From contig JAJYLZ010000010.1 in NCBI GenBank assembly GCA_021787395.1, positions 4,030 through 68,029 on the forward strand: a stretch of 64,000 nucleotides of DNA, read 5' to 3'. The notes below the pieces were generated by a model. The model saw nothing but the letters and a program-made list of their open reading frames with translations. It had not been told where the DNA came from and did not search any database. Origin of the DNA: Chloroflexota bacterium. GTDB taxonomy: Bacteria; Chloroflexota; Limnocylindria; Limnocylindrales; CSP1-4. The first letter of the stretch is position 1. Every line of letters begins with the position of its first letter. Both the position numbers and the translations under genes were made by a program. Below are positions 1,071 to 18,840 of this stretch, piece by piece.

Positions 1071-1994
1071 ATGACCGGCCTGATGGACGAGGGCCCGCGG
1101 CTGCTGCGGGGAGGCCCGGTGGCCACCGCCATCCGGGAGCAGGTGGCCGCGGACGTCGCCGGGTTCCGGGCGGAGTTCGGGTACCAGCCGGCTCTGGCGG
1201 TGCTGGTCGTCGGCGCGGACGCCCCCTCGCTCGTGTACCTCCACAAGATCCTCGACGGCTGCCGCCTCGTGGGCATCGGCGACCGGCTCGTCGAACTGCC
1301 GGCGGAGTCCACGGAGGAGGACGTGAGCCGGGCGCTCCGCGGCCTCCAGGCGGACCCGGCGATCGCCGGGATCATCGTCCAGCAGCCCCTCCCCAAGGGC
1401 GTCGGCCTGCGGGCGGTGATCGACGCCCTGGACCCCATGCGCGACATCGACGGCATCCACCCGCTCAACGCCGGGCTGCTCTCGCTCGGCTACGACGGCT
1501 TCCTGCCCGCCACCGCCCATGCGAGCGTGGAGATCCTCAAGCAGTCGGGCATCCCGATCTCGGGCAGGCACTGCGTCGTGGTGGGGCGGTCCAACGTGAT
1601 CGGCAAGCCCGCGGCCCTGCTGATGCTGCGCGAGAACGCCACGGTCACGGTCTGCCACAGCAAGACCGCCGACCTGCCGTCCATCCTCCGGACGGCGGAC
1701 ATCGTGATCGTCGCCATCGGCAGGGCCAACTTCGTCACCGGCGACATGCTCAAGCCCGGCGCCGTCGTCGTGGACGTCGGCATCAACGTCGTCGAGGGCA
1801 AGCTCGTCGGCGACGTCCACTTCGAGAGCGCGGCGCGCGTCGCGTCCGCGATCACCCCGGTCCCCGGCGGTGTCGGACCCCTCACCAACGCCATCCTGCT
1901 CACGCACCTCGTCGAGGCCGCCCGGGCGAAGGCAACGGGCAGCATCCCGCTGGGTGCCCACTCCCTCGCAGTCCCCGCTCCGGAGGCCAACTAG
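1071..1994 (+). CDS. folD: Bifunctional methylenetetrahydrofolate dehydrogenase / methenyl-THF cyclohydrolase
   Basis: 307 aa. FolD-like motifs: LAVLVVGADAPSLVYLHKI, QQPLPKG, DGIHPLNAG, VVVGRSNVIGKPAALLML, PVPGGVGPLT. Confidence 0.93.
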   Translation: MTGLMDEGPRLLRGGPVATAIREQVAADVAGFRAEFGYQPALAVLVVGADAPSLVYLHKILDGCRLVGIGDRLVELPAESTEEDVSRALRGLQADPAIAGIIVQQPLPKGVGLRAVIDALDPMRDIDGIHPLNAGLLSLGYDGFLPATAHASVEILKQSGIPISGRHCVVVGRSNVIGKPAALLMLRENATVTVCHSKTADLPSILRTADIVIVAIGRANFVTGDMLKPGAVVVDVGINVVEGKLVGDVHFESAARVASAITPVPGGVGPLTNAILLTHLVEAARAKATGSIPLGAHSLAVPAPEAN

Positions 1995-3701
<1,707 letters not shown>

Positions 3702-3749: not shown

Positions 3750-4703
3750 ATGAGCCCAGTCCTCGACGCCCTCGGTCGGGTCCTGCCGGTCCTGCTGCTG
3801 GTCGCCCTCGGCGCGGTCCTGCGCCAGCGCGCCTGGCTGGGGCCGTCGACGATCGGCGATCTGCGCCGGCTGGTCCTGACGGTGACCCTGCCGTCGGCGC
3901 TGTTCCTGACGTTCCTGCGGGTGGACCTCGAGGCGCGCTTCCTGCCGATCATCGCGATCGTGTTCAGCGCCTGCCTGGTCATGCTTGCCGCAGGTCCGCT
4001 GCTCGCGCGTCCGATGGGCGCACGCTCCCCGTACACGGGCCCGCTGATGACCGGGTTCGAGGCCGGCATGCTCGGCTACGCGATCTACGCGGGGGTCTTC
4101 GGGCAGGACAACCTGTACCGGTTCGGGATCATCGACCTGGGCCAGGTCCTGTTCGTGTTCTTCGTCCTGGCGCCAGTGCTCGTTCGCCGGTCCACCGGCG
4201 TGCGACCCGGGCTGGGCGCGACGGCCCGGTCTTTCTTCAAGACGCCAGTCATCCTCGCCATCCTGGGCGGCCTCGTCGGGCACGTCGTGGGCCTCGGCGG
4301 CCTGTTCGACGCGTCGCCGCTCCTGGCCTCCATCCCCGCCGCACTGGGCCTGCTGGCCGCCTGCACGACGCCGCTCATCGCGCTCGTCATCGGCTACTCG
4401 ACGGCGCTCCGGCCGGGCGCGCTGCGGCGGCCGACGGTGACCATCGCGCTGCGCCTCGCCGTGTGGATCGTGCTCGCCATCGCCTTCGACCGCCTGGTCG
4501 TGGAGGGCGTGCTGGGGCTCGACCGCCTGTTCGGGGCCGCCGTCCTGACGATGGCCGTCCTGCCGCCGCCATTCGTCATCCCGCTGTACATGGGCGGCCG
4601 GGCCACCGACAGCGAGCACGCCTACGTGACAGACGCCCTCTCGGTGGCCACCGTGGCCACGATGGTGCTGTTCCCCGTGGTGGCGACCGCGTTCAGCGGC
4701 TGA
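3750..4703 (+). CDS. AEC (auxin efflux carrier) family permease
   Basis: 317 aa and about 10 predicted TM helices. The two-lobed hydrophobic layout and N-terminus (VLPVLLLVALGAVL...) are typical of the AEC family. Confidence 0.75.
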   Translation: MSPVLDALGRVLPVLLLVALGAVLRQRAWLGPSTIGDLRRLVLTVTLPSALFLTFLRVDLEARFLPIIAIVFSACLVMLAAGPLLARPMGARSPYTGPLMTGFEAGMLGYAIYAGVFGQDNLYRFGIIDLGQVLFVFFVLAPVLVRRSTGVRPGLGATARSFFKTPVILAILGGLVGHVVGLGGLFDASPLLASIPAALGLLAACTTPLIALVIGYSTALRPGALRRPTVTIALRLAVWIVLAIAFDRLVVEGVLGLDRLFGAAVLTMAVLPPPFVIPLYMGGRATDSEHAYVTDALSVATVATMVLFPVVATAFSG

Positions 4704-4755
4704 GAGCGGGCCGAGCGGGCCTCCCGGGAGCCCTCCCAAAGACCACATGGTTCAG

Positions 4756-5179
4756 GGTCGTTCACGAATCGCGGAACTACTGGGGAGTTGGGGACGGCTG
4801 CGGGTGGCGGGGATCTCCGGCAGGCCGCCCTCCCTCCGACGCGCGGCGGGTCGCCCGTGCCGAGGCCGGTGCGGGCCGCTGGTGCGGCTGGGTCGGTCCG
4901 GGCCGCCCGTGCGGGCCGCCGGCGCGGCTGGGTCGGTGCCGAGCCCGGTGCGGCTGGGTCGGTGCCTGGCCCGTGCGGGCGGCCGGTGCGGCTGGGTCGG
5001 TGCCTGGCTCGTGCGGAGGCCGGGTGCTGCTGGGCGGGGCCCAAGATCGTTCCGCGATTCGTGAACGACCCGGAATCGAGGGTCGGGCGGAGACCCCACC
5101 CCGCGGCGCGAGGCCGGCCCATGGACCAGCTGGGGTGCTACGTCCCGGCGAATCGCGATCGTTCGCGAATAGCGGAACC
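4756..5179. repeat. REP-like palindromic repeat array A (3 copies, core GTTC[CG]GCGATTCG[CT]GAAC)
   Basis: Copies at 4756-4777, 5049-5070 (an exact 22-nt reverse complement of the first) and 5157-5179. The array is intergenic, between the 3' ends of the AEC permease gene and iolE. Confidence 0.75.
4867..5040. repeat. Degenerate tandem repeat (unit core GGTGCGGCTGGGTCGGTGCC, 4 copies, period 26-40 nt)
   Basis: Copies at 4881-4900, 4921-4940, 4947-4966 and 4985-5004, with CCGTGCGGGC(C/G)GCC interspersed. The repeat lies between the inverted REP copies. Confidence 0.65.
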
Positions 5180-5294
5180 AACCGCGCGCCGGGCGGAGGC
5201 GCGCGGCGAGGCGCGGCGGCGGGCGCGGCGGTGCGGCGCAGGGCGGCGGAGCGCGCGGCAGCGCAGAGGCGCAGAGGCGGCGGGACGGCGCGAC

Positions 5295-6164
5295 TCAGGC
5301 CCCGAGCAGGCCCTCGAGGTAGACGCGGTTGGCGCGCGCCGTCGCCGTCGGGTCGGGCGCGGTGTCCTGCTCGATGACGTACCAGCCGTCGTACCCGACC
5401 CGCTGCAGCGCCTCGACGACCTCCGGGATCCGGGCCATGCCCCGGCCGAGGGGCGGGAAGATGTAGTGGGCCAGCGCCTGGCCGAAGGACCAGCCCCCGG
5501 CCCTCGCCTGGGCCAGCACGTCCGGGTCCACGTCCTTCGCGTGGACGTGGCGGACCCGGTCGGCGTACCCCGGCAGGAGGTCGATCGCGTTGCCGCCGCC
5601 GAAGGCCAGGTGGCCGATGTCGAGGCACCACCCCACCAGGTCCGGGTCGGTCTCGTCGAGCAGGCGCGCGGTCTCGGCCGGCGTCTCGACGTAGGTCCCC
5701 ACGTGGTTGTGGAACGCGAGCGTCATGCCCAGGGGCCTCAGCCGGCGGGCCAGCTCCTGCAGCCCGCCCGCCAGGTTCCGCCACTGCGCGTCGGTCAGCC
5801 CGCGGGACTCGTCCACGTGGCCCGCCTCGCCGCGGCGCCGGTCGTCGCCGGCCTCCGCGGCGATCAGCACCCTGCCGCCGTTCTTGGTGAGGAAGTCGGC
5901 GATGCCCAGCGCCCGCTCGAGCTCCGCGTCCCAGCGGTCGCGGTCCCGGAAGCCCAGCCCCACGAACGCGCCGACCAGGTCCAGGCCCCGGCTGCCCAGG
6001 GCCTCCCGGAGCTCGTCGGGGTCCGTCGGCATCGACGGGCCCCATTCGGTGGCGTCGTAGCCGGCCTCGACCATGCGGTCGAGCGCCTCGCCGTACGGCA
6101 TCCACGGGAACACGTCCGGGATGTCCGGGCTGTTCCAGTTGACGATCGCGGTGGCGATCCGCAT
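5295..6164 (-). CDS. iolE: Inosose dehydratase-like sugar phosphate isomerase/epimerase (xylose-isomerase-like TIM barrel)
   Basis: 289 aa. AP-endonuclease-2/IolE-type TIM-barrel motifs (AFHNHVGTYVETPAE, CLDIGHL, HVHAKDVD, YVIEQD). It lies immediately downstream of iolD on the same strand. Confidence 0.72.
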   Translation of the reverse strand: MRIATAIVNWNSPDIPDVFPWMPYGEALDRMVEAGYDATEWGPSMPTDPDELREALGSRGLDLVGAFVGLGFRDRDRWDAELERALGIADFLTKNGGRVLIAAEAGDDRRRGEAGHVDESRGLTDAQWRNLAGGLQELARRLRPLGMTLAFHNHVGTYVETPAETARLLDETDPDLVGWCLDIGHLAFGGGNAIDLLPGYADRVRHVHAKDVDPDVLAQARAGGWSFGQALAHYIFPPLGRGMARIPEVVEALQRVGYDGWYVIEQDTAPDPTATARANRVYLEGLLGA

Positions 6165-6209: not shown

Positions 6210-8090
6210 CTAGGCGAGCTCCTCCCGCTGGAGCGCCGCGGCCTGCTCGTACCGCGCGCGGGCCGCGACGACTAGGTCCGACCCGCTGACCTCGGCCGGC
6301 GGGACGTCCCACCAGCTCTCGTAGCCCGGGGCTCGCTTGTCGGGGTTGACGTAGACGTGGATCACGGTCGTGCGGTCCGCCGTGCGGGCGGCCGCGATCG
6401 CGTCGCGGATCTCCTGCTCGGTGTGCGCGGTGACCCCGATCGCGCCCATCGCCTCGGCGTGCTTGGCGAAGTCCACCGGGATGTAGCCGCCGGTCAGGCG
6501 CCCGGTGCCGCCCTCGCGGAAGCGCAGCTCGTTGCCGAACTGGGGCACGCCGCAGCTCCAGGCCAGGTCCTTGATGCACTGGAAGCCGTGGTTGTCGAAC
6601 ACGACCACGGTCATCTTCACGCCCTCGGCGACCGCGGTGACGATCTCGCTGTTCAGCATCAGGTAGGTCCCGTCGCCGATGGCGACGACCACCTCGCGCT
6701 CGGGCTCGGCCATCTTGACGCCGATGCCGGCCGGGATCTCGTAGCCCATGCAGGAGTAGCCGTACTCGAGGTGGTAGGCCTTGCTGTCCTCGGGCCGCCA
6801 CAGCTTGAGCAGGTCGCCGGGCAGCGAGCCCGCCGCGCACACGACCGTGGCGTGGCCGCCGACGGCGTCGTTGACGATGCCGATGACCTCGGGCTGGGCG
6901 AGGTCGCCCGGATCGCCGCCGGGCCGCCGGTGGAAGTCGACCCGGGCGTCCCACTCCTCCTTCAGGTCGCCGATCCGGTCGCGGTAGGCCTGGCTGGTGC
7001 CGGGGTGGTCGGCCAGCGCCGCCGTGAGCGAGAGCAGCGCCTCTCGGGCGTCGGCCACCAGCGCGACGGCGCGCACCTTGTTGGCGTCGAACCCGTTGAG
7101 GTTGATGCCGACGAAGGTCGCGTCCTCGTTCTGGAAGGCCGTCTTGGACGCGGTGACGAAGTCGCCCATGCGGGTGCCGATGGCGATGACGAGGTCCGCC
7201 TCCTTGGCCAGGCGGTTGGCGGCGAGGCCGCCCGCCGCCCCGACCGGGCCCACGTTCAGGGGGTGGTTCCAGGGCAGGACGCCCTTGCCCGCCTGGCTCT
7301 CGCTGACCGGGATGCCGAAGGTGGTGGCGAAGGCGTCGAGCGCCGCCTCGGCGCCGGAGTAGATCGCCCCGCCGCCGGCGACGATGAGCGGCTGCCGCGC
7401 CGTGCGGATGAGCTCGGCCACCTCGGCCAGGACGGCGGGCTCCGGGACGGGCCGGCGCACGTGCCAGACGCGCTTGGCGAAGAACCGCTCCGGCCAGTCG
7501 TAGACCTCGGCCTGGACGTCCTCGGGCAGGGCCACGGTCACCGCGCCCGTCTCGGCCGGGTCGGTGAGCACGCGGAAGGCCTCGGGCAGGGATGACAGCA
7601 GCTGCTCCGGGCGGCTGATCCGGTCGAAGTAGCGGCTGACCGGGCGGAACGCGTCGTTGGCCGACACGTCGTGCTCGACCGGGTGCTCCACCTGCTGCAG
7701 GACCGGGTCGGGCAGGCGGTTCGCGAAGTAGTCCGACGGGAGCAGCAGGACCGGCAGCCGGTTCACCGTCGCCTGCGCGGCGCCGGTGACCATGTTCGTG
7801 GCGCCGGGCCCGATCGAGCTCGTGCAGGCGAACGTCTGCAGCCGGTTCTTGTGCTTCGCGTAGGCGGCGGCGAGGTGCACCTGCGCCTGCTCGTTCTGGG
7901 GGCGGTAGTAGGGCATCTGGCACTCGTCGCCGAGCTCCTCGAGCGCCTGACCGAGGCCGGCGACGTTGCCGTGGCCGAAGATCCCCCAGACGCCGGCGAT
8001 GAAGCGGCTCTCGACGCCGTCACGCTCGACGTACTGCGCCGCCAGGAACTTGACGATCGCCTGTCCGACCGTCAGCCGGATGGTGGACAA
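6210..8090 (-). CDS. iolD: 3D-(3,5/4)-trihydroxycyclohexane-1,2-dione acylhydrolase (ThDP-dependent)
   Basis: 626 aa. N-terminus MSTIRLTVGQAIVKFLAAQYVERDG...GIFGHGNVAGLGQALEE and the ThDP motif GDGTYLMLNSEI are typical of IolD. Confidence 0.92.
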   Translation of the reverse strand: MSTIRLTVGQAIVKFLAAQYVERDGVESRFIAGVWGIFGHGNVAGLGQALEELGDECQMPYYRPQNEQAQVHLAAAYAKHKNRLQTFACTSSIGPGATNMVTGAAQATVNRLPVLLLPSDYFANRLPDPVLQQVEHPVEHDVSANDAFRPVSRYFDRISRPEQLLSSLPEAFRVLTDPAETGAVTVALPEDVQAEVYDWPERFFAKRVWHVRRPVPEPAVLAEVAELIRTARQPLIVAGGGAIYSGAEAALDAFATTFGIPVSESQAGKGVLPWNHPLNVGPVGAAGGLAANRLAKEADLVIAIGTRMGDFVTASKTAFQNEDATFVGINLNGFDANKVRAVALVADAREALLSLTAALADHPGTSQAYRDRIGDLKEEWDARVDFHRRPGGDPGDLAQPEVIGIVNDAVGGHATVVCAAGSLPGDLLKLWRPEDSKAYHLEYGYSCMGYEIPAGIGVKMAEPEREVVVAIGDGTYLMLNSEIVTAVAEGVKMTVVVFDNHGFQCIKDLAWSCGVPQFGNELRFREGGTGRLTGGYIPVDFAKHAEAMGAIGVTAHTEQEIRDAIAAARTADRTTVIHVYVNPDKRAPGYESWWDVPPAEVSGSDLVVAARARYEQAAALQREELA

Positions 8091-8167: not shown

Positions 8168-8181
8168 GGTAATCGTTTACA
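8168..8181. promoter_or_regulatory. LacI-type operator candidate GGTAATCGTTTACA, overlapping a TACACT -10-like hexamer (8178-8183)
   Basis: An imperfect palindrome with a central CG that fits TGnAAnCGnTTnCA on the reverse strand (TGTAAACGATTACC). It lies in the iolD/iolG divergent gap. Confidence 0.5.
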
Positions 8182-8326
8182 CTCTAGACCGCTCAGGCCT
8201 CGGGACGCAACCCTCGCGTCGTTCGCCCAGGGCGGTCGTCCGGGCCGAGCTCGAGCAGCGAGGATCTCACGCCAAGGCCGGTTGACGCCCGAGGGGCGCA
8301 GCGCCAGCAGTCAGGAGGCAGTGCAC

Positions 8327-9319
8327 ATGCTCCGCATCGCGATGCTGGGGGCCGGGCGCGTGGGCCAGGTCCACGCCCGCTCCGTCGTCGCCCACCCGGA
8401 GGCAGAGCTGGCCCTGGTCGTGGACCCGATCGAGGCCGCCGCCACGTCTCTGGCCGCGACCCACGGCACCCGCTGGAGCCTGGACCCCCAGGACGCGTTC
8501 GAGGACGCGTCCATCGACGCGGTGATCATCGGGACGCCCACCAACACCCACACCGAGATGCTCGCCCGCGCGGTGGACGCGGGCAAGAAGGTCCTGCTCG
8601 AGAAGCCGATCGACCTCGACCTCGCCCGGATCGACGACGTCTGGGCCAGGATCCAGGCCAAGGCGCCGTTCGTGATGCTCGGCTTCAACCGCCGGTTCGA
8701 CCCGTCGTTCCGTGAGGTCAAGGAGCGCGTGCAGCAGGGCGAGATCGGGATGGTCCGCGCCCTGCGCATCACCTCGCGCGACCCGCAGCCCCCGCCTGCT
8801 GCCTACCTCTCCGCCTCCGGCGGCATGTTCAAGGACATGACCATCCACGACTTCGACATGGCCCGCTTCCAGGTGGGCGACATGGTGGAGGTCTCCGCCG
8901 TCGCCTCGGACAACGGCCTGGACGCGTTCCGGGAGGCGAATGACCACGCGCAGGCGATCATCACGATGCGCGCCGTGAGCGGCGCCCTGGTGACGATCGT
9001 CGACAGCCGGTCCTGTGCGTACGGCTACGACCAGCGCCTCGAGGCGTTCGGCGACCTGGGCTCGCTCGAGGTGGGCAACTGGACGGCCACCAGCGTCCGG
9101 TCGGCCAGCGCGACCCGGACCGAGGCTGCGGGCCCCCTCCTCAACTTCTTCCTGGAGCGCTACCTGCCGGCGTTCCAGAACGAGCTCGACGAGTTCGTCC
9201 AGGCGATCAAGGCGGACCGCGCCCCGGCGGTCGGGTTCGCCGACGGGCGCGCCGCGCTGGTCCTCGCCGAGGCCGCCAACGAGAGCGTGGCCACCGGTCG
9301 GGTCGTCAAGGTCGGCTGA
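8327..9319 (+). CDS. iolG: myo-Inositol 2-dehydrogenase (Gfo/Idh/MocA family, IdhA-type)
   Basis: Start moved to ATG 8327, which follows AGGAGG (8313-8318). Motifs: MLGAGRVG Rossmann, EKPIDLD, GFNRRFDP, ITSRDP, GGMFKDMTIHDFDMARF, YGYDQRLE. The match to rhizobial IdhA is close, from memory. Confidence 0.88.
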   Translation: MLRIAMLGAGRVGQVHARSVVAHPEAELALVVDPIEAAATSLAATHGTRWSLDPQDAFEDASIDAVIIGTPTNTHTEMLARAVDAGKKVLLEKPIDLDLARIDDVWARIQAKAPFVMLGFNRRFDPSFREVKERVQQGEIGMVRALRITSRDPQPPPAAYLSASGGMFKDMTIHDFDMARFQVGDMVEVSAVASDNGLDAFREANDHAQAIITMRAVSGALVTIVDSRSCAYGYDQRLEAFGDLGSLEVGNWTATSVRSASATRTEAAGPLLNFFLERYLPAFQNELDEFVQAIKADRAPAVGFADGRAALVLAEAANESVATGRVVKVG

Positions 9320-9373: not shown

Positions 9374-10306
9374 TCAGCGGCGCGCCAGCTCCTGCAGTAC
9401 GCGCTCGGCGACCCGCTCCGGCGTGAGCCCGTGGCGCTCCAGCAGCCAGGCGTTGGGCGCCGATTCGCCCCAGGTGTCCTCGATGCCGATCCGGGCGACC
9501 CATCGGGGCTCGTGGGAGGTGACCACCTCGGCGACCAGTCCGCCGAGCCCGCCGAGGACCGAGTGCTCCTCGGTCGCGACCACGAGCGGCACCGCGGCCG
9601 TCGCCTCCGCCAGCGCCGCCGTGTCGAGGGGCTTGACGGACGGCAGGTGGACGACGCCGGCGTCGACCCCGCGCGCGGCGAGCAGGCCGGCCGCGGCCAG
9701 CGTCCGCGCCGTCTGCTGGCCGGTGGACACGAGCAGAACGTCGGCCCCGTCGCGGAGGCGGACGACCCGGCCCGGCTCGAACACGTAGTCGGCGCCGAAC
9801 ACGTCCGGGCCCGCCTCGCGCCCCAGCCGCAGGTAGACCGGCCCCGGCGTCGCGGTGGCCCAGCGGACGATCGCCGCGCACTCCGCGGCGTCGGCCGGGG
9901 CGAGCACCGTCATGTCCGGCATGGCGCGCATGATCGCGAGGTCCTGCACGTCGAGGTGCGTCTTGCCGGAGAAGCCCAGCTGGAGCCCCGAGTAGGCGGC
10001 GCCGATCTTCACGTTGGCCCGGGTCTGGGCCACGGACATCCGCACCTGGTCCACGGCCCGGTGGGTGAAGAACACCGTGAACGAGGACAGCCAGGGCACG
10101 AACCCGAGCGATGCCAGGCCCACGGCGGTGCCCACCATCCCCTGCTCCGCGATCCCCATCTCGAGGAAGCGGTCCGGGAACGCGCGGGCGAACTTCTCCG
10201 CCTTGGTGGACGTCGCGAGGTCCGCGTCGAGGACCAGCAGGTCCGGATTCGAGGCGCCCAGCTCGACCAGCGTGTCGGCCCACACGTCCCGCTGCGGCGC
10301 GCTCAC
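9374..10306 (-). CDS. Transketolase, C-terminal (pyrimidine-binding/C-terminal domain) subunit
   Basis: This is the lower half of the 618-aa track ORF. GTG at 10306 overlaps the upstream stop (GTGA). Motifs: FPDRFLEMGIAEQGMVG, GKTHLDVQDLAIMRAMP, PVYLRLGRE. Confidence 0.9.
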   Translation of the reverse strand: MSAPQRDVWADTLVELGASNPDLLVLDADLATSTKAEKFARAFPDRFLEMGIAEQGMVGTAVGLASLGFVPWLSSFTVFFTHRAVDQVRMSVAQTRANVKIGAAYSGLQLGFSGKTHLDVQDLAIMRAMPDMTVLAPADAAECAAIVRWATATPGPVYLRLGREAGPDVFGADYVFEPGRVVRLRDGADVLLVSTGQQTARTLAAAGLLAARGVDAGVVHLPSVKPLDTAALAEATAAVPLVVATEEHSVLGGLGGLVAEVVTSHEPRWVARIGIEDTWGESAPNAWLLERHGLTPERVAERVLQELARR

Positions 10307-11196
10307 TGCGCTGCCTCGCCCAGCTCCGCCCGGGCCGCGGCGACCTCGTCGGCCGTGGCCGCCCGCGCGTGCCAGGCCGACGCGCCCTGCGTGAAGCTGA
10401 AGCCGCGGCCCTTGACCGTGCTCGCCAGGATGGCGGTCGGCGCCCCGCCGCCGGCCGCGGCCCTGGCAGCCTCGCAGGCGTCGATGATCTGGCCGAAGTC
10501 GTGGCCGTCGATCTCGAGGACGCGCCAGCCGAACGCCTCGAGTGCGGCCCGCGCCGCCACGTCGCCGAACGGGTCCCGCCGGTCGCCGCGGTGGGTCTCG
10601 CCCGGGCGGAGGGGCCAGCCGTACTGCTGCATGCCGTTGCGGTCCACGATCATCGTCAGGTTGCCGAGCCCGTACTTCGCGGCCACGGCGACGCTCTCCC
10701 AGACCTGGCCCTCCTGCATCTCGCCGTCGCCGAGCAGCACCCAGGTGTGGAAGTCGAGCCCGCGCAGCCGAGCGCCGAGCGCCATCCCCACGCCCACCGA
10801 GATCCCCTGCCCCAGCGAGCCCGTGGAGGCGTCCAGGCCGGGCAGCCGGGTCATGTCGGGATGGCCCTGGAGGCGCGAGCCGGCCTGGTCGAACGTGCGG
10901 AGCTCGTCCACGGGCAGGTAGCCGGCCAGGGCCATGGCCGTGTACAGCCCGATCGCGGAATGCCCCTTGGACAGGACGAAGCGGTCGCGGTCCGGCCAGT
11001 CCGGCTGGTCGGGCCGGATGCGCATCACGCGCAGGTACAGCGCCACCAGCAGGTCCATCGCTGAGAGGGGCCCGCCGACGTGGCCGGCGCCGGCTGCATT
11101 GGTGCTCTCGAGGACCAACAGGCGGCCGCGTCGAGCGAGCGCCTCGAGGTCGGCGTGGGCGCCGGGGCCTGGCGAGGCGGGAGGCGTGGCGGGCAT
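10303..11196 (-). CDS. Transketolase, N-terminal (ThDP-binding) subunit
   Basis: Motifs: GHVGGPLS, DRFVLSKGHS, GSLGQG, LGDGEMQEGQVWE. I prefer ATG 11196, which follows GAGGAG, over ATG 11226 in the track. Confidence 0.88.
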   Translation of the reverse strand: MPATPPASPGPGAHADLEALARRGRLLVLESTNAAGAGHVGGPLSAMDLLVALYLRVMRIRPDQPDWPDRDRFVLSKGHSAIGLYTAMALAGYLPVDELRTFDQAGSRLQGHPDMTRLPGLDASTGSLGQGISVGVGMALGARLRGLDFHTWVLLGDGEMQEGQVWESVAVAAKYGLGNLTMIVDRNGMQQYGWPLRPGETHRGDRRDPFGDVAARAALEAFGWRVLEIDGHDFGQIIDACEAARAAAGGGAPTAILASTVKGRGFSFTQGASAWHARAATADEVAAARAELGEAAQ

Positions 11197-11268
11197 GCGC
11201 AGCTCCTCGATGGTCGGCCGCCGCATTCACCGGCGACGGCTTCCATGTTCCCAGATTCCAGCGTACAA

Positions 11269-11282
11269 TGCAATCGATTACA
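11269..11282. promoter_or_regulatory. LacI-type operator candidate TGCAATCGATTACA
   Basis: It fits the LacI-family consensus TGnAAnCGnTTnCA. It lies in the transketolase/LacI divergent gap, flanked by TACAAT (11264-11269, plus strand) and TGTAAT on the minus strand. Confidence 0.55.
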
Positions 11283-11356: not shown

Positions 11357-11370
11357 CGAAATCGATTACG
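11357..11370. promoter_or_regulatory. LacI-type operator candidate CGAAATCGATTACG
   Basis: A second AATCGATT-core site, 88 nt from the first and upstream of the LacI gene. Confidence 0.45.
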
Positions 11371-11514: not shown

Positions 11515-12558
11515 ATGAGCGATCGCGGCGCTCCGGCCACCATCCGCGACGTCGCGCGGCGGGCGGGGGTGTCCACGGCCACTGTGAGCCGCGTCCTGGC
11601 GGGGATCGGCAACCCGCGAACGGAGACCGCGGACGCGGTGATGGCCGCCGTCGTGGCGCTCGACTACCGCCCGTCGGCGGTGGCCCGGTCGCTGCGGATG
11701 CGCCGGACCAACACCTTCGGGCTGATCGTGACCGACATCCAGAACCCCTTCTTCCCCGAGCTCGTGCAGGCCGCCGACGACGCCGCCCGCGGGGTGGGCT
11801 ACTCGATCCTGCTCGGGTCGGCCGCCTACGACGAGCACCGGGCGGTGCACTACCTCGACCTCATGGCCGACCGGCGCGTGGACGGGATGATCGTCGCCTC
11901 GAGCCGGGTCTCGGACGAGAGCTGGCGCTGGCTCGCCGCCAGCCCGGTTCCGGTCGTGGTGGTCAACGCGGAGCCCGCCAACGTGCCGATCACGGTCATC
12001 ACCAGCGACAACCGCGGCGGGATGCAGCTGGCCGCCGAACACCTCGTCGGGCTCGGCCACCGGCGCATGGCCTACGTCCGCGGCGAGGAGGGCATCACCG
12101 CGGACCAGCCGCGGGTCGAGGGCTTCCGGGCCGCCTGCCGGGCGGCGGGCATCCCCGCCTCGGACATCGTCGAGCTCCACGGCAACGCCCAGTTCGAGGG
12201 CGGCGAGCGGGCCGTGGCCGAGCTGGTGCGCAGCGGCCTGGACGTCACCGCGATCGCGTGCCACAACGACATCACCGCCATCGGCGCCCTGCGCGCGCTC
12301 CGGGCCGAGGGCGTCCGCGTTCCCCACGACGTGAGCGTCATCGGCTGCGACGACATCGCCGCGGCGTCGTGGGTCGTCCCCTCGCTCACCACCGTCGCCC
12401 AGCAGAAGGCCGAGATGGGGCGGATGGCCGTCGAGCGCCTGCTCGCCATGCTCGACGCCGGCGTGGGCGGCATCGCCCCCGCGACCATCCGCGTCCCGAT
12501 GGTCCTCCAGGTGCGCGAATCCACAGGACCGGCCCCGACCGGAGGCGTGCGGCCCTGA
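11515..12558 (+). CDS. LacI-family transcriptional regulator
   Basis: Start moved to ATG 11515. The N-terminus ATIRDVARRAGVSTATVSRVL is the LacI HTH, followed by a periplasmic-binding-protein-like sugar domain. Confidence 0.9.
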   Translation: MSDRGAPATIRDVARRAGVSTATVSRVLAGIGNPRTETADAVMAAVVALDYRPSAVARSLRMRRTNTFGLIVTDIQNPFFPELVQAADDAARGVGYSILLGSAAYDEHRAVHYLDLMADRRVDGMIVASSRVSDESWRWLAASPVPVVVVNAEPANVPITVITSDNRGGMQLAAEHLVGLGHRRMAYVRGEEGITADQPRVEGFRAACRAAGIPASDIVELHGNAQFEGGERAVAELVRSGLDVTAIACHNDITAIGALRALRAEGVRVPHDVSVIGCDDIAAASWVVPSLTTVAQQKAEMGRMAVERLLAMLDAGVGGIAPATIRVPMVLQVRESTGPAPTGGVRP

Positions 12559-12627: not shown

Positions 12628-13527
12628 ATGGTTCGCGTCGCCAACGCCCCCTGCTCGTGGGGGGTGATCGAGGGCATCGAGGGCGAGACCGCCGGCTACG
12701 CCAAGGTCATCGACGAGATGGCCGAGACCGGCTACATCGGCACCGAGCTCGGCGACTGGGGCTTCATGCCCACCGACCCCGACCGGCTCAGGAGCGAACT
12801 CGACGCACGCGGGCTGGCGCTGATCGGCTCGTGGGTCAGCGTCTGGCTGCACGACAAGTCGAAGCACCGGAGCTCGGCCGACGACGCCGTCCGAACCGCC
12901 AAGCAGCTGGCGCGAGTGGGCGGCAGGGAGGCCGTCGTCGTCCTGGGCAACGACCCCTACGGCGACCCGCTCCGGACCAAGATCGCCGGCCGCGTCCGCC
13001 CGCAGGACGGCCTCTCCGACGAGCAGTTCCAGGTCCTCGCCGAGGGGGCCAACTACGTGGCCCGGCGGGTCTGGGACGAGGCTGGCATCCGGACCGTCGT
13101 CCACCAGCACATCGGCACCTGGATCGAGACCGAGGCCGAGGCGCGCAGGCTGTTCGACATGACCGACCCCTCGGTGCTGGGCCTGTGCCTCGACACCGGC
13201 CACTGGACGTTCGGCGCCGGGGGCGACCCGGTCGCCGCCGTCCGCGAGTTCCGCGACCGGGTCTGGCACGTCCACTTCAAGGACGCCGACCCGGCGATCA
13301 TGGCCGCCTCCCGCGCCGAGGAGCTCAGCGGCCCGGAGTCGGTGGGACGCGGCGTCTTCTGCGAGCTGGGCCGAGGCGAAGTGGACTTCCCGGGCATGCT
13401 CAGGGCCCTCGAGGACGTCGACTACCGCGGCTGGATCGTCGTGGAGCAGGACGTGCTCCCCGGCATGGGCAACCCCCGGGAGAGCGCCCGCCGGAACCGC
13501 GAGTACCTGCGCTCGATCGGCGTCTAG
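12628..13527 (+). CDS. Second IolE-like sugar phosphate isomerase/epimerase (TIM barrel)
   Basis: 299 aa. Motifs: [35 protein letters not shown]. It is a paralogue of the 5295-6164 product. Confidence 0.82.
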
Positions 13528-13646
13528 CCGGGGTTCGTTCGCGGCGCGGCGGCGGCGCAGGCCGGCTGCCCGCCCAGGCCATCTCGAGTCGTCGGCCGCC
13601 GTTCGGCGGCTGGGGGCCGAGCATCGCGGAATCGTCGGGCAGGCTC

Positions 13647-13902
13647 GGTCGTTCGCGAATCGCGGAACCATTCCGGGCGGGGCCGGGGGTCGTTCCGGGC
13701 GGGCTGGGCGCGTTTCCGGATCGTTCCGCGATTCGCGAACGATCTGGAAACGCAGACAACGACCCGGAACGCCTGCCCTGCCGAGGCGCGGCCCCGGCGA
13801 TAGGCCGATGGCCCGCCCATGGGCGCGCTCCGGGGCAACGGGGGGACCCCCCCCGGGGGGGGTGGGACCCCGGGCGCCGGATCGTTCCGCGATTCGCGAA
13901 CC
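13647..13902. repeat. REP-like palindromic repeat array B (3 copies of the same family as array A)
   Basis: Copies at 13647-13669, 13718-13744 (inverted relative to the first, 20 nt identical) and 13879-13902. The array is intergenic, between the convergent 3' ends of the TIM-barrel gene and iolA. Confidence 0.75.
13840..13874. repeat. G/C homopolymer palindrome G6-A-C8-G8-T-G3-A-C4-G3
   Basis: Read directly from the sequence. The C8G8 core is a perfect 16-nt palindrome. Confidence 0.7.
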
Positions 13903-14095
13903 ACCCGGAACCGCCGAGCTGGCAGACCACTAGCCAGGCGCCGGGCTCGGCTCGGGCAGGCGCCGGGCACGGCTCGGGCGCGGCGGGCCATGGCTCGGCG
14001 AGACCGGGCCACGTTCTGTCGGGCGCCAGCTCACAGCTCGGGCGGGCCGGCCCCAGCGACGCGGTCCGGCAGTCGGCAGCGGCCAGATACACGAA

Positions 14096-14190: not shown

Positions 14191-15717
14191 TCAGGAGTTG
14201 CCGGGGAAGACCAGCGAGAGCGGGCCCTCCTTGCCGGGCTCGGGCCAGCGCTCGGTGACCATCTTCTGCTGGGTCCAGAAGCGGACGCCGTCCTCGCCGC
14301 GCATCGGCAGGTCGCCGATCGCGGAGTCCTTGGCGCCCGCGAAGCTCATGAAGCCGGCCGGCACCGGGATCGGCACGTTGATGCCGATCATCGGCACGTC
14401 CACTTCGAGCTTGAACCGCCGGGCAGCGCCGCCGTTGGTCGTGAAGATCGCGGTGCCGTTGGCGTACTTGTGCCCGTTGATGAGGGCCAGGCCCTCCTCG
14501 TAGGTCTGCGCGTGGACGATGCCGAACACCGGGCCGAAGATCTCCTCGTTGAAGATCTTCATCTCGGGCGTGACGTTGTCGAACAGGGACACGCCGAGGA
14601 AGAAGCCGTCGGGGTTCGGGCCCTGGAACTTGCGCCCGTCCACCACCAGCTCCGCGCCCTCGGACTCGCCGACGCCGATCCACTTGACGATCGACTCGCG
14701 GTGCTCCTGGCTGTAGATCGGGCCCATGTCGGCGCCCGGCTCCATGCCGTCGGTGATCTTGAGCTTCGCGATCCGCTCCAGGATCTTGGGGCGCAGCCGC
14801 TCCCCGGTGTCGCCCACCGCGACCATCAGGGTCTGGGCCATGCACCGCTCGCCCGCGGAGCCGAAGCCCGAGGCGACCGCCGCGTCGGCGACCAGGTCCA
14901 GGTCGGCGTCCGGCAGGACGAGCATGGCGTTCTTGGCCGAGGTGTACGCCCCGACCCGCTTGCCGCGCTTGGTGCCCTCCTCGAACACGTACCGGCCGAC
15001 GGCCGTGGACCCGACGAACTGGATCGCCTTGATGTCCTTGTGCTCGACGATCGCCTTCACGGCCTCCTTGCCGCCGTAGACGATGTTGAAGGTGCCGGCG
15101 GGGCCGCCGGCCTGGCTCCACAGCTCGGCCTGGAGCTGGGTGGCGCCCGGCGTGTGGGAGGACGGCTTGAGGATGACCGTGTTGCCGGCCATCAGCGCGA
15201 TCGGGTAGATCCAGGTCGGGACCATGACCGGGAAGTTGAACGGCGTGATCGCCGCCGTGACGCCCAGCGGGACCCGGAGCGTCTCGGTGTCCACCTTGGT
15301 CGACACGTTGGGCGTGTTCATGCCCGACATGTGGACCGGCAGGCCGCAGGCGAAGTCGATGGTCTCGATGCCGCGGAGCACCTCGGCCAGGGCGTCGGGG
15401 AACGTCTTGCCGTGGTCGCGGGTGACCAGGCGGGCGAGCTCCTCGCGGTGCTCGTACATCAGCGCGCGGAAGTTGAAGAAGATGTTGCTGCGCGCGATGA
15501 GCGGCATGTCGCGCCAGGCCGGGAAGGCGGCCTTGGCGGCCTCGACGGCCGCATCAACCTCGGCCTGGCCACCGCGCGGCACGCGGGCGATCACCTTGCC
15601 GTTGGCCGGGTTGTAGACCGGGCCGGTCTGCTCGGGCAGGACCTCGACCGCGGTGCCGTTGATGTAGTGCGAGAGGATCGGCAGGACCGCCGCCTCGTTC
15701 GGGGTGTCGATGGCCAC
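14191..15717 (-). CDS. iolA: CoA-acylating methylmalonate/malonate-semialdehyde dehydrogenase
   Basis: 508 aa. Aldehyde dehydrogenase motifs: ITPFNFP, FVGST, GERCMA, EEIFGPV. The overall MmsA/IolA pattern includes the HYINGT N-terminus. Confidence 0.92.
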   Translation of the reverse strand: MAIDTPNEAAVLPILSHYINGTAVEVLPEQTGPVYNPANGKVIARVPRGGQAEVDAAVEAAKAAFPAWRDMPLIARSNIFFNFRALMYEHREELARLVTRDHGKTFPDALAEVLRGIETIDFACGLPVHMSGMNTPNVSTKVDTETLRVPLGVTAAITPFNFPVMVPTWIYPIALMAGNTVILKPSSHTPGATQLQAELWSQAGGPAGTFNIVYGGKEAVKAIVEHKDIKAIQFVGSTAVGRYVFEEGTKRGKRVGAYTSAKNAMLVLPDADLDLVADAAVASGFGSAGERCMAQTLMVAVGDTGERLRPKILERIAKLKITDGMEPGADMGPIYSQEHRESIVKWIGVGESEGAELVVDGRKFQGPNPDGFFLGVSLFDNVTPEMKIFNEEIFGPVFGIVHAQTYEEGLALINGHKYANGTAIFTTNGGAARRFKLEVDVPMIGINVPIPVPAGFMSFAGAKDSAIGDLPMRGEDGVRFWTQQKMVTERWPEPGKEGPLSLVFPGNS

Positions 15718-15762: not shown

Positions 15763-16857
15763 TCAGCCGGGCTTGGCGTCTGGGTTGGGAAGAACGATAT
15801 CCCTGACGACGCCCACGAGATCGTGGTACGACGCGATGAACCCGCGCAAGGTCCGCGCGGTCGCGCCATAGGTCACGAATTCAGCCGGGGTCAGGCCGTC
15901 TGGCTCGTACGCCCGCCGGAAGTCCGGGACCCGCTCGAGCAGGTCGTCGACCAGCGCCTGGTCGACCGGGACGTCGATGCGCGGGACCGGATCGATGCCG
16001 GAGCTGTTGAACCGGACCTGCCAGGCGTAGGGCATCGTGAGCACGACGTCCGCGCCGACGAGCTCGGTCCAGTGCAGGCGGTGGCGGTAGGCGGCCGCCA
16101 GCAGCCGCGTGCGGTAGCCGCGCTCGCGGTAGATGCCGTAGGCGCGCTTGAAGGCGGCGATGCCGGCCCAGCTCGACGCGGCCGGGTCGAGCGCGATCGA
16201 GTCCCGCTCGACGAGGATCTTCATCCAGTCGTCGAGCCGCCCCACCATGAGCGAGCAGACCGGCGACATCCGGCTCGAGTCGCCGCCGGCCGCCTCGAAC
16301 CGCCGGATCCCGCGCTCGACGGCCTCGGCGGCCGCGATGCACTGCGCCACGGTGAACACGACCGTCACGTTGGCGACCACGCCCCGGGCCGTGGCCTCCT
16401 CGACCGCCACCAGGCCCTCCGCGGTGCACGGGAACTTGACCTGGATGTTGGGGGCCAGGGTGCTGAAGTGGACCGCCTGCTCCACCATCCGGTCCGGAGT
16501 GCGGTAGTTGGCGGGGTTGGTCTGCAGCGACAGCCGGCCCTTCCTGCGGTCGTGCGCCTCGAACACCGGCTGCAGGATCGCGGCGCCGCGGACGCCCATC
16601 TCCTCGATCAGCTGCCAGGTGATCTCGACCTCGGACCAGTTGGGGTTCTGGGCGGCGATCTCGCGCACACGCGGGACCCAGTGGTCCTTCTCCTTCTTCA
16701 TCACCTCGCCGACGATCGTCGGGTTCGAGGTGGCGCCGGTCCCCCCGCGGGCGACCGCGTACTCCAGCTCGGCGACCGCGCAGGAGTCGTTCCAGAAGTC
16801 GGTCGGGGTGGTCTCGACCATCTTCGCGAGGGGGCTGGCGGCGGCAGTCAGGGTCAT
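15763..16857 (-). CDS. Transaldolase-family protein
   Basis: 364 aa. Motifs: FWNDS, GATSNPTIV, RLSLQTNP, IQVKFPCT (Schiff-base Lys context), NVTVVFT. The ATG overlaps the iolB stop by 4 nt. Confidence 0.88.
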   Translation of the reverse strand: MTLTAAASPLAKMVETTPTDFWNDSCAVAELEYAVARGGTGATSNPTIVGEVMKKEKDHWVPRVREIAAQNPNWSEVEITWQLIEEMGVRGAAILQPVFEAHDRRKGRLSLQTNPANYRTPDRMVEQAVHFSTLAPNIQVKFPCTAEGLVAVEEATARGVVANVTVVFTVAQCIAAAEAVERGIRRFEAAGGDSSRMSPVCSLMVGRLDDWMKILVERDSIALDPAASSWAGIAAFKRAYGIYRERGYRTRLLAAAYRHRLHWTELVGADVVLTMPYAWQVRFNSSGIDPVPRIDVPVDQALVDDLLERVPDFRRAYEPDGLTPAEFVTYGATARTLRGFIASYHDLVGVVRDIVLPNPDAKPG

Positions 16858-17753
16858 GCGGACGTGTCCTCCTGGGCCCGTGGCGCTGCCGGAGACCAGT
16901 TCATCAGCCAGGCGTGGTCCGGGTCGATCGTGAAGTGCCAGGCCCGGTTGGGGCCGGCCATGATGTTGAGGTAGTAGGCGTCGTACCCGGCCGGCGCACC
17001 GAACGGGTGGTAGCCCTCGGGGACGATCACGATGTCGCAGTCGCCCACCGCCATCGATGCGTCGAGCGAGCGGTCCGCGGTGTACACGCGCTGGAAGCCG
17101 AAGGCGCCCGGCCGGGCGAACCGGTAGAAGTAGAGCTCCTCGAGGTAGGCCTCGACCGGTGGGTTCTCGGTGTCGTGCTTGTGGGGCGGGTAGCTGCTCC
17201 AGTTGCCGCCCGGCGTGTACACCTCGAACGCGATCAGGCGGCCCGCCGCCATCTGTGGGTCGAGCAGGTGGTGGATCCGGCGGGCGGTCTGCCCCTCGCC
17301 CCGCGCCTCGACGAGGATCTCCTCGGGGGCGATGTACCGGGTGCTCCTGACGGGGCCGCCGGGCGCGGCCGCGACCACCACGAGGGCGTCGGACGCGGCG
17401 ACCACGCGGATCGCGTCGCCGGGCGCGGCGAGCACGACCGGCGCGGCCGGGCCGTCGAACACGCTGGCGCGCGAGCCGACCCGCTCCAGCTCGAGGCCGC
17501 CGGCGGTCACCGAGGCGTACCCCTCGAGCACCAGCACCAGGCGCTCCTGGCCGTCGGCGTCGCGGGAGATGGCCTGGCCCGGGGCCAGGCGGTGGACGGT
17601 CGCGGTCACCCAGTCCCAGCCGGCATTGTCGGGGTCGACGTGGCCGATCACGCCGTCGGGGTCCGGGCGGGCCGCGCGGCGGAGGAGGTGCCGCGCGGCC
17701 CCCGGGGGATTGCTGGCGGGGTTCGGGTTGCCGGCCGCTGGAACAGGGGTCAT
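16854..17753 (-). CDS. iolB: 5-deoxy-glucuronate isomerase
   Basis: Motifs GGNWSSYPPHKHD, YLEELYFYRF, GYHPFGAPAGYDAYYLNIMAGP are diagnostic of IolB. I prefer ATG 17753, which follows GAAGGAAG, over the track TTG at 17777. Confidence 0.9.
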   Translation of the reverse strand: MTPVPAAGNPNPASNPPGAARHLLRRAARPDPDGVIGHVDPDNAGWDWVTATVHRLAPGQAISRDADGQERLVLVLEGYASVTAGGLELERVGSRASVFDGPAAPVVLAAPGDAIRVVAASDALVVVAAAPGGPVRSTRYIAPEEILVEARGEGQTARRIHHLLDPQMAAGRLIAFEVYTPGGNWSSYPPHKHDTENPPVEAYLEELYFYRFARPGAFGFQRVYTADRSLDASMAVGDCDIVIVPEGYHPFGAPAGYDAYYLNIMAGPNRAWHFTIDPDHAWLMNWSPAAPRAQEDTSA

Positions 17754-17772: not shown

Positions 17773-17786
17773 GGCAATCGATTACA
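17773..17786. promoter_or_regulatory. LacI-type operator candidate GGCAATCGATTACA
   Basis: The 12-mer GCAATCGATTAC is identical to the site at 11270-11281. It lies in the iolB/DapA-like divergent gap. Confidence 0.55.
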
Positions 17787-17886
17787 TGAGAATGATGACG
17801 CCCCTCTCGGGGGGCGTCAAGGGGCGACCCGACTTCCGGCCGTCGTGTAGCCTCGCGGGTGCAGGATGCTTCGGCACGGAGGCGGC

Positions 17887-18828
17887 ATGGGCGACATCAC
17901 GGCGCTGCGCGGGGTCTGGAACATCGTCCCGACCCCCTTCCTTCCCGACGGCACGCTCGACACCGCCTCGATCCCCCGCCTGGTCGACTTCGTGCGGGCG
18001 ACCGGCGTGGACGGCCTCACGATCCTGGGCGTGCTGGGCGAGGCGGGACGCCTGGGCGACGCCGAGCGGTCCGCGGTGCTCCACGCCGCGATCGAGGCGG
18101 CGGACGGGTCGCTGCCGGTCTGCGCCGGCGTCTCGCACGCTGCCACCGATCGCGCGGTCGCCTTCGCCCGCGAGGCCCAGGCCGCCGGCGCGCACAGCGT
18201 GATGCTGGCGCCGCCGCCCCTGGCCCGACCCACGGACGCCGCGCTCCGCCGCCACTACCTCGCCGTCGCCGGTGCCGTGGACCTGCCGATCGTCGTCCAG
18301 GACCACCCCGCCTCGTCGGGCGTCGTGATGTCGGTCGAGTTCCTGCTGTCCCTGGCGGTCGAGGCGCCCGCCTGCCGGGTCGTGAAGCTCGAGGAGGAGC
18401 CCACCCCGCCCAAGGCGGGCCGCCTCGTGGCCGGCTCGAGCGAGCTCCTGGTGCTGGGCGGGCTGGGCGGCGAGATGCTGATCGAGGAGCTGGGCCGCGG
18501 CACCCACGGGACGATGACGGGCTTCGGCTTCCCCGAGGTGCTGGTGGCCGTGGTGCGACGGTGGTTCGCCGGCGACCGGGCGGGCGCGGCCCGGCTGTTC
18601 GACCGCTACGCGACGCTCATCCGGTTCGAGAACCAGGCCCTGCTCAACCTGCCCATCCGGAAGCACCTCTACCAGCGCCGCGGCGCCATCGCGCACGCGA
18701 CGGTCCGCGCCCCCGGCGTGCCGGCCGACCCGGCCACGCTGGACGACCTCGAGGCCATCCTGCGGCGGGTCGGCCTGGACCGGCACCTCGCGGCGGGGTC
18801 GGTCCTGCCAGAGCTGCTCGCCGGCTGA
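17887..18828 (+). CDS. Dihydrodipicolinate synthase/N-acetylneuraminate lyase family protein (class I aldolase/dehydratase fold)
   Basis: Motifs: TPF..DG.LD, GVDGLTILGVLGEAGRL, and a candidate Schiff-base Lys in RVVKLEE. I prefer ATG 17887, which follows GGAGG, over 17866. Confidence 0.82.
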   Translation: MGDITALRGVWNIVPTPFLPDGTLDTASIPRLVDFVRATGVDGLTILGVLGEAGRLGDAERSAVLHAAIEAADGSLPVCAGVSHAATDRAVAFAREAQAAGAHSVMLAPPPLARPTDAALRRHYLAVAGAVDLPIVVQDHPASSGVVMSVEFLLSLAVEAPACRVVKLEEEPTPPKAGRLVAGSSELLVLGGLGGEMLIEELGRGTHGTMTGFGFPEVLVAVVRRWFAGDRAGAARLFDRYATLIRFENQALLNLPIRKHLYQRRGAIAHATVRAPGVPADPATLDDLEAILRRVGLDRHLAAGSVLPELLAG

Positions 18829-18840
18829 GCGGCCGGATCC

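Follow-up and report, generated by a model that had tools for sequence, protein, structure and literature searches.

What does a transketolase do in the middle of a gene cluster for inositol breakdown? The question is raised by a 64,000-nucleotide stretch of DNA from a Chloroflexota bacterium (contig JAJYLZ010000010.1; the whole stretch is called the window here), in which two adjacent minus-strand genes at 9374-11196 encode the halves of a split transketolase (TK), set among iol genes and a gene for a LacI-family regulator. The window (G+C ~73%) sits on contig C79 of its genome (G000; 3.45 Mb in 96 contigs, 92% complete), which is described as a soil-type Chloroflexota; close homologs carry the label Candidatus Limnocylindrales. 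A sequence-only reading of the window had proposed a TK dedicated to an inositol regulon, and this proposal has stood up: a second tkt on another contig (C28), a conserved linkage to iol genes, and operator-like sites at the TK promoter support the conclusion that the gene pair codes for an additional, specialised transketolase in an inositol-catabolic regulon that LacI probably controls. As to the reaction, we assign a probability of roughly 0.55 to the enzyme moving the C2 ketol unit of 2-deoxy-5-keto-D-gluconate (DKG) onto glyceraldehyde-3-phosphate (GAP), which would yield xylulose-5-phosphate (Xu5P) and D-malate semialdehyde. Indirect support for this reaction comes from the lack of iolC and iolJ, a substrate pocket that is altered around a kept phosphate site, tartrate/D-malate-type and aldehyde dehydrogenases beside clade members elsewhere, and the precedent of a sulfo-TK.

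Gene identities were taken from Pfam and NCBIfam profile searches of the window's open reading frames (ORFs), with the curated NCBIfam cut-offs. The N subunit (297 aa; 10303-11196, minus strand) carries Transketolase_N (E 3.7e-53 in the minus-strand ORF 10303-11226), and the C subunit (310 aa; 9374-10306, minus strand) carries Transket_pyr (E 9.4e-37) and Transketolase_C (E 3.3e-23). Both match the same full-length transketolase model (NF004559), the N half with 272 bits at positions 16-282 and the C half with 244 bits at positions 319-624. The N-subunit stop and the GTG start of the C subunit overlap as GTGA at 10303-10306, just as the sequence-only reading had described. Its N-subunit start at 11196 is also to be preferred over the ORF start at 11226, because this ATG has a GGAG six bases upstream and an identical database protein (P0003) is 297 aa long. 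When aligned to 6yak and human TK, the N subunit shows all of the expected motifs (AGAGH, SKGH, QGHPD, GDGEMQEG, DRNG, and WHA). Its PP domain has the GDG...N metal/diphosphate motif and the catalytic histidines (equivalents of H26, H66, H100, and H261 in Escherichia coli), and the Pyr domain has the cofactor-activating Glu in a GIAEQ motif, followed by the C-terminal domain. The closest solved structures are the two components of the Carboxydothermus split TK, 6yak for N (E ~5.4e-68) and 6yaj for C (E 3.6e-84). At the level of motifs, the pair is thereby confirmed as a predicted split TK that is complete in its cofactor and catalytic elements. Of the flanking genes named earlier, iolG is indeed the convergent downstream neighbor, but the second IolE-like gene (12628-13527) lies past the LacI gene and is not a direct flank. 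A scan of the TK region for sigma-70 promoters and terminators found none.

Whether the genome has a full-length housekeeping tkt, a point that the sequence-only reading had raised, is settled by contig C28, where a 716-aa frame matches Transketolase_N with 498 bits. The split TK is therefore neither the housekeeping enzyme nor the sole transketolase. A standard transaldolase is encoded on contig C14.

The linkage of the split TK to iol genes reaches well beyond the window. Matches to it (E <=1e-40) occur in 16 of 24 other genomes of the genus, often as several paralogs. We fetched 19-20 kb around orthologs of 68-81% identity in eight genus genomes, and in all eight the TK genes stand beside iolD-iolE1. 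In seven of these, the genes for IolD, the IolE-like protein IolE1, and the N and C subunits form one co-directional string (iolD-iolE1-TKN-TKC), which in four runs on into an IolG paralog. L034, the eighth, has TK after iolE1, with a LacI-type gene separating iolD. The window's own layout is common to genome G114 and a closed 4.15-Mb contig (P0030). In an even phylum sample of 301 genomes, a TK-C homolog is found in 41 and IolD in 61, and the two genes stand no more than ~2 kb apart in four genomes, G000, G114, G292, and G317. The last of these, a genome from another family (two contigs, 99% complete), has TKN-TKC-IolG-IolB-IolD-GFO-IolE on one strand; its 20-kb locus has no match to IolA, PfkB, DeoC aldolase, or the transaldolase-like (TAL-like) protein described below, and no iolC above cut-off is found in the whole genome. 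On an unrelated contig (L046), the order is IolD-IolE-tartrate/D-malate-type dehydrogenase-fused TK (628 aa)-IolB, and the last two genes share a 4-bp overlap. The adjacency that the sequence-only reading had wanted to see in relatives is thus kept throughout the genus genomes fetched and recurs in G317 and L046.

The TK genes are transcribed divergently from the LacI gene and share with it, as had been noticed at the outset, an operator-bearing promoter region. This 318-bp intergenic region holds two 14-mers, namely the palindrome TGCAATCGATTACA at 11269-11282 (73 bp upstream of the TK start) and CGAAATCGATTACG at 11357-11370, on the LacI side. With the palindrome upstream of TK as a 14-mer pattern, a search of the whole 64 kb returned four operator-like sites against 0.06 expected by chance, all of them at three divergent iol promoter regions; the remaining ones lie between iolD and iolG (8168-8181) and upstream of iolB, between that gene and a DHDPS-family gene (17773-17786). 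The iolB site is preceded by a promoter-like pair (TTGACG...ATCATT) and stands just upstream of the iolB start (ATG at 17753, with AGGA upstream). A similar TTGACGCCC..GAGGGGCG string is found upstream of iolB (17786-17825, ahead of ATCATT and the operator site) and in the probable promoter/start region of iolG (8282-8300), and may be a common promoter element. Equivalent 14-mer sites exist in the TK/LacI intergenic region of G114 and upstream of the iolD-iolE1-TK operons in other relatives. As the same motif is found at TK promoters in both gene orders, it marks the TK as a member of the iol regulon. The regulator itself (11515-12558, plus strand; Pfam LacI helix-turn-helix (HTH) and Peripla_BP_1/3) is likely to start at 11515, given that the long ORF (391 aa) reaches its HTH only at residue 52-53; its ortholog on the closed contig has 347 aa. 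We infer that this protein is probably the repressor of the regulon and binds the 14-mers. In canonical iol regulation, the usual inducer is phosphorylated DKG. Since that compound could presumably not be made in this organism (see below), the effector would have to be a different one.

The canonical iol pathway, of the Bacillus subtilis / Corynebacterium type, consists of IolG, IolE, IolD, IolB, IolC, IolJ, and IolA. The window resembles it in IolG, IolD, IolB, IolA, an IolE-like gene after iolD, and a repressor with operators at each promoter, and differs from it in that IolC and IolJ were not found in the genome, which has a TAL/FSA-like gene and a split TK instead. IolG, IolD, IolB, and IolA all pass the curated cut-offs. 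Inositol 2-dehydrogenase IolG (8282-9319, plus strand) scores 366 bits with TIGR04380 against a cut-off of 355; its start is uncertain within 8282-8330, the match beginning at residue 55 of the long ORF. The ring-opening thiamine diphosphate (ThDP) hydrolase IolD (6210-8090, minus strand) scores 907 bits with TIGR04377 (cut-off 715), the 5-deoxy-glucuronate isomerase IolB, which makes DKG (16854-17753, minus strand), 291 bits with TIGR04378 (cut-off 205), and the CoA-acylating (methyl)malonate-semialdehyde dehydrogenase (MMSDH) IolA (14191-15717, minus strand) 598 bits with TIGR01722 (cut-off 448.5). The inosose dehydratase-like IolE1 (5295-6164, minus strand; AP_endonuc_2), whose gene directly follows iolD in the window and in relatives, reaches 208 bits with TIGR04379, below the cut-off of 290. 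IolE2, the second IolE-like TIM-barrel protein (plus strand; AP_endonuc_2 E 1.9e-28; 186 bits with the iolE model, likewise below 290), is 41% identical to IolE1, and its gene is co-transcribed with the LacI gene. Finally, iolB and iolA form one co-directional string with the gene between them, which encodes a diverged transaldolase/FSA-family (TAL-like) protein (15763-16857, minus strand; TAL_FSA E 1.4e-38; 116 bits with the best NCBIfam transaldolase model, below 367). The sequence-only reading had covered neither this gene nor the missing kinase and aldolase genes.

The search for the canonical lower pathway came back empty. The best iolC model score in the genome is 166 bits, below the cut-off of 300, and among the eight relatives (73-99% complete) it is at most 168 bits in seven, with no match in the eighth; as a control, the same cut-off was passed in 3 of 14 named control genomes. 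DUF2090 was not found in the genome, its sole class II aldolase match is weak (48 bits, on another contig), and the PfkB kinase and DeoC-type aldolase of a canonical cluster gave no tblastn match in it. By these searches the genome appears to be without an IolC kinase and an IolJ aldolase, neither having been found.

We now turn to the substrate pocket, for which the C subunit was aligned to human TK and the Carboxydothermus split TK. The register was checked on the human count, which lands on R318, S345, H416, D424, Q428, and R474, all of the type expected at these functional positions. The phosphate-site residues are kept (R6, S33, and R163 for R318, S345, and R474, respectively), as are His117 and the cofactor Glu. 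The channel, on the other hand, is not that of a canonical housekeeping TK: the phosphate-contacting H416 has become Y105, E423-D424 has become F112-S113, and a Lys is gained at position 115 in place of Pro or Ala (P426 in human TK). The N subunit is canonical when set against 6yak and human TK. The Carboxydothermus hydrogenoformans enzyme (6yaj/6yak) thus shares the two-chain architecture and the cofactor motifs, but its channel reads THAG...GEDGASH, compared to AYSG...GFSGKTH in the window; canonical split TKs read THxG...GEDGxSH. All ten genus orthologs in the alignment have Tyr105 and nine have Lys115, which is Met in the closest one (L018); their Asp424 position is Ser, Thr, Ala, or Gly. 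The pattern Tyr...Gly-Lys-Thr/Ser-His recurs in ~30 of 150 listed 50%-identity cluster representatives. In the phylum sample, the canonical motif occurs in small-genome lineages, and every homolog of 47-57% identity has the Tyr form. Both homolog lists are saturated by close relatives and so give no cross-phylum view; for the context of the clade, seven distant representatives were looked up, the contigs of P0125, P0132, P0155, and P0203 being too short to use. DKG, a free ketose, has the same D-threo configuration as fructose and amounts to Xu5P in which -O-PO3 is replaced by -COO-, so that a carboxylate stands where Xu5P has its phosphate. The proposed reaction would need a shortened anion site beside the kept phosphate site for GAP/Xu5P, and the residues seen in the alignment may be read as such a pocket.

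How, then, might the pathway run? IolG, IolE, IolD, and IolB would convert myo-inositol (or a close isomer) to DKG by the standard upper pathway. From there, two transferases would act on unphosphorylated DKG in place of IolC/IolJ. The split TK would transfer the C1-C2 ketol unit to GAP, giving Xu5P and (3R)-3-hydroxy-4-oxobutanoate, which a putative aldehyde dehydrogenase would oxidise to D-malate. The TAL-like enzyme would cut DKG at C3-C4 and release malonate semialdehyde for IolA, its C3 unit going either to GAP (forming fructose-6-phosphate) or into free dihydroxyacetone. Together, the TK and the TAL-like enzyme probably replace the textbook kinase and aldolase. We infer the donor substrate, the products, and the bifurcation from gene content, context, and pocket residues.

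The C3 branch deserves a closer look. IolA needs malonate semialdehyde, and only a C3-C4 cleavage of DKG provides it. This need, along with the position of the gene between iolB and iolA, points to the TAL-like protein as the enzyme for that cut, so that it probably forms a parallel C3 branch supplying IolA. It belongs to the same fold family as TalB and FSA and keeps the Schiff-base Lys (in QVKFP), the Asn/Thr motif, and the phosphate-site Arg. In the TalB and FSA literature, K132 of TalB forms the Schiff base, E96 of TalB is the catalytic Glu, and FSA uses a catalytic Tyr. Throughout the TAL-like clade, the position of TalB Glu96 is Gln (as in FSA) and that of Phe178, where FSA has its catalytic Tyr, is Met, with the result that the enzyme fits neither template; the housekeeping transaldolase of the same genome has Glu at the Glu96 position. 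Because a Dak1 gene exists elsewhere in the genome, an aldolase reading with dihydroxyacetone as the product stays alongside the transaldolase reading with fructose-6-phosphate. TAL-like genes lie within ~2 kb of iolD in six further clusters (contig C2 of the same genome, G005, G100 twice, G231, and G333), and G100, G231, and G333 have no match to the specialised TK. Conversely, G317 and L046 have the TK without a TAL-like gene, and the window has both. This occurrence of the two modules apart and together supports a bifurcated scheme like that of sulfo-TK and sulfo-TAL. Taken as a whole, the scheme would be a kinase-free, bifurcated lower inositol pathway with a DKG-specific TK (C2 to Xu5P, C4 to D-malate) and a new transaldolase/aldolase subfamily (C3 to the hexose/triose pool, C3 to malonate semialdehyde), each module standing alone in other lineages, so that nature would hold at least two independent replacements of IolC/IolJ. 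We consider this full version slightly less probable than even.

The C4 branch would lead to D-malate. If C5-C6 is taken off, the Fischer projection of D-gluconate suggests that the remaining C4 fragment would be (3R)-3-hydroxy-4-oxobutanoate, and its oxidation would give (R)-malate, that is, D-malate, which agrees with the earlier suggestion of a product one oxidation step from malate. TIGR02089-type (tartrate/D-malate) dehydrogenases adjoin members of the TK clade in L046 (528 bits) and L043 (533 bits; cut-off 470), and the dehydrogenases beside clade members in L062 and L065 are 56-59% identical to the L046 enzyme. L046 and L065 also have an aldehyde dehydrogenase, the one in L046 scoring below the MMSDH cut-off. 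The best match to the clade-linked aldehyde dehydrogenase in the window's genome is 46% identical and lies on another contig. Phosphoketolase was not found in this genome.

Precedents for such recruitment exist. SqwGH and the bifurcated sulfo-TK/sulfo-TAL pathway of Faecalicatena act on a sulfonate analogue (PMC11659671), so the sulfoquinovose parallel that the sequence-only reading had drawn for a split TK in specialised catabolism is a real one. The likeness would comprise a two-subunit TK in a catabolic cluster, a non-phosphorylated anionic D-threo ketose as donor, GAP as acceptor, Xu5P as product, and a transaldolase acting in parallel on the same ketose with no kinase needed. The window's donor would differ in having a carboxylate on a chain one atom shorter, and, unlike with SqwGH, no second TK round would follow after isomerisation, as the C4 product would offer no other hydroxyl. 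The annotated neighbors are iol genes only, with no sulfoquinovose genes among them, and the likeness to SqwGH is one of description. In the D-apiose pathway, Carter et al. are said to have described in 2018 an apulose-4-phosphate transketolase, AptAB. Set beside it by description, the window's enzyme is likewise a split TK recruited to a specialised sugar catabolic cluster and giving Xu5P, but the AptAB donor is phosphorylated and a kinase precedes AptAB. A literature search found no paper linking a transketolase or transaldolase to inositol catabolism or DKG; the enzyme proposed in a 2026 paper on Dysosmobacter is an FBA-type aldolase that would act on phosphorylated DKG rather than a transketolase.

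The same TK family also appears in a second setting. The relatives L037, L039, L040, and L071-L073 carry paralogous operons of the order TAL-like - 122-aa cupin - TKN - TKC with GntR/FCD regulators, and the TKs in them are ~50-58% identical. These operons adjoin UPF0261, phosphoenolpyruvate (PEP)-hydrolase-like, and PEP-utiliser genes. The operon of G123 also codes for an MMSDH that shares 79% identity with IolA, and at the threshold used this genome has no IolD match. In such operons, the TK/TAL pair would seem to have a second role.

Several observations weigh against the DKG route. Contig L041 carries an ortholog of ~70% identity together with genes for a PfkB kinase, IolB, and a DeoC/DUF2090 aldolase; there, the TK is followed by an IolG-like gene and then by a second KduI-family gene, with a LacI gene in the same locus. 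The enzyme is thus not simply a replacement for kinase and aldolase, and its substrate might be a different one. The lost Asp, which in canonical TKs reads the 4-OH of the donor, could equally mean a substrate without that hydroxyl. One Tyr/Lys clade member (P0140) sits in a non-iol context, among hydantoinase/CoA-transferase genes, and others occur with cupin and TAL-like genes and without iolD. As a consequence, the Tyr/Lys motif alone does not specify DKG, and L041, the paralogous operons, and the hydantoinase context together suggest that the clade handles more than one substrate and that the donor here could be another ketose. On the product side, no tartrate/D-malate-type Iso_dh is found in the window's genome, whose three Iso_dh genes are of LeuB or isocitrate dehydrogenase types; the genus relatives are also without such a dehydrogenase, and no aldehyde dehydrogenase for the C4 product was found in the window cluster. 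Lastly, this cluster is without the ABC importer and the second GFO-type dehydrogenase present in those of G114 and P0030.

Part of this evidence would be explained if the TK belongs to the regulon but works on another free ketose, derived from another cyclitol (or derivative) through IolE2, extra GFO/IolG-like enzymes, and second KduI/IolB-like enzymes. The L041 locus, with its complete kinase/aldolase set beside a TK ortholog, LacI, IolG-like, and second KduI-family genes, speaks for such a donor, as do the extra IolG paralog directly after TK-C in relatives, the second iol-like cluster on contig C2, and the lost Asp, which fits a differently substituted donor. We nevertheless think it unlikely, since the G317 and L046 operons hold only the standard upper-pathway set and the TK, with iolB adjacent or overlapping, and the gene content names no candidate for the alternative ketose.

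The enzyme might also be an ordinary sugar-phosphate transketolase, co-induced only to rebalance the pentose-phosphate pool against fructose-6-phosphate from the TAL-like reaction. All cofactor, catalytic, and phosphate-binding residues are present, as this would require, and the TAL-like route alone seems enough in genomes without this TK. Yet a full-length tkt is already there, three conserved channel positions depart from those of canonical TKs across the clade, and the TK sits in iol operons without any TAL-like gene, all of which makes the idea improbable. Slightly more doubtful still is a TK specialised mainly on the acceptor side, for an aldehyde without a 2-hydroxyl such as malonate semialdehyde, so that it makes or splits a C5 deoxy-keto acid. 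At the position where canonical TKs have an Asp to bind the 2-OH of the acceptor, the orthologs have Ser, Thr, Ala, or Gly, and the paralog of G123 shares its operon with an MMSDH-type and a TAL-like gene; against this, the cluster shows no source or sink for a C5 acid, and the association with tartrate/D-malate-type dehydrogenases favors a C4 hydroxy-acid product. That the adjacency is a by-product of local rearrangement, as the REP-like palindromic repeats flanking the 8.5-kb block and a gene order unlike that of most relatives might suggest, is scarcely credible, given that TK and iol genes stay linked in either gene order and in other families and that the TK promoter has its own operator-like sites.

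DKG as the TK donor remains our preferred reading, and some features around the cluster complete the picture. The REP-like repeats (core GTTCCGCGATTCGCGAACGA) form two arrays, at 4749-5193 and 13646-13926, which bracket the block from iolE1 to iolE2; a GC-rich tandem repeat with a unit of ~38-40 nt is found at 4864-5022. At precisely these two places, G114 has an ABC sugar importer (binding protein, permease, and ATPase) and a 372-aa GFO-type dehydrogenase, and the closed contig P0030 carries the same extra genes. The importer binding protein of G114 has no tblastn match anywhere in the window's genome. Genes for FolD and formate-tetrahydrofolate ligase (1071-3701) adjoin the iol block, after a GntR/UTRA regulator gene (54-866); no link to the TK is established. 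A 317-aa ORF at 3750-4703 has coding-type codon bias and no Pfam/NCBIfam match, and an 80%-identical copy lies ~4 kb beyond iolE1 in G114.

Divergent from iolB, and sharing its operator region, is the DHDPS-family gene (17866-19608 region), with an SDR gene next to it. For the former, the one match came from G114 (86% identity), the nearest of the relatives fetched; the closed contig has the cluster but not this gene. The SDR gene is without a match in the 20-kb locus of G114. Both had been considered as product-handling enzymes and were dropped as core parts, being shared at most with G114. The genome further holds a second, paralogous iol-like cluster (locus L056, contig C2:4000-12200), with IolB' (62% identical), IolG' (35%), IolD' (51%), TAL-like' (52%), IolE2' (65%), and a GFO gene. 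Neither a transketolase nor IolA was found in it, and it probably serves another cyclitol.

The breakdown of myo-inositol is a textbook pathway by which genomes from soil, rhizosphere, and gut are annotated, and a genome that lacks iolC/iolJ is usually taken to be unable to complete it. The proposed TK-containing inositol route appears to be a new variant, not described in the literature searched and well supported by comparative genomic evidence. If the TK and the TAL-like enzyme do act on free DKG, many Chloroflexota would be inositol users that spend no ATP on the substrate, and the route would lead straight into the pentose-phosphate pool and to malate. It would also add two new enzyme specificities, with a simple signature in the Pyr domain (Tyr / Gly-Lys-Thr-His).

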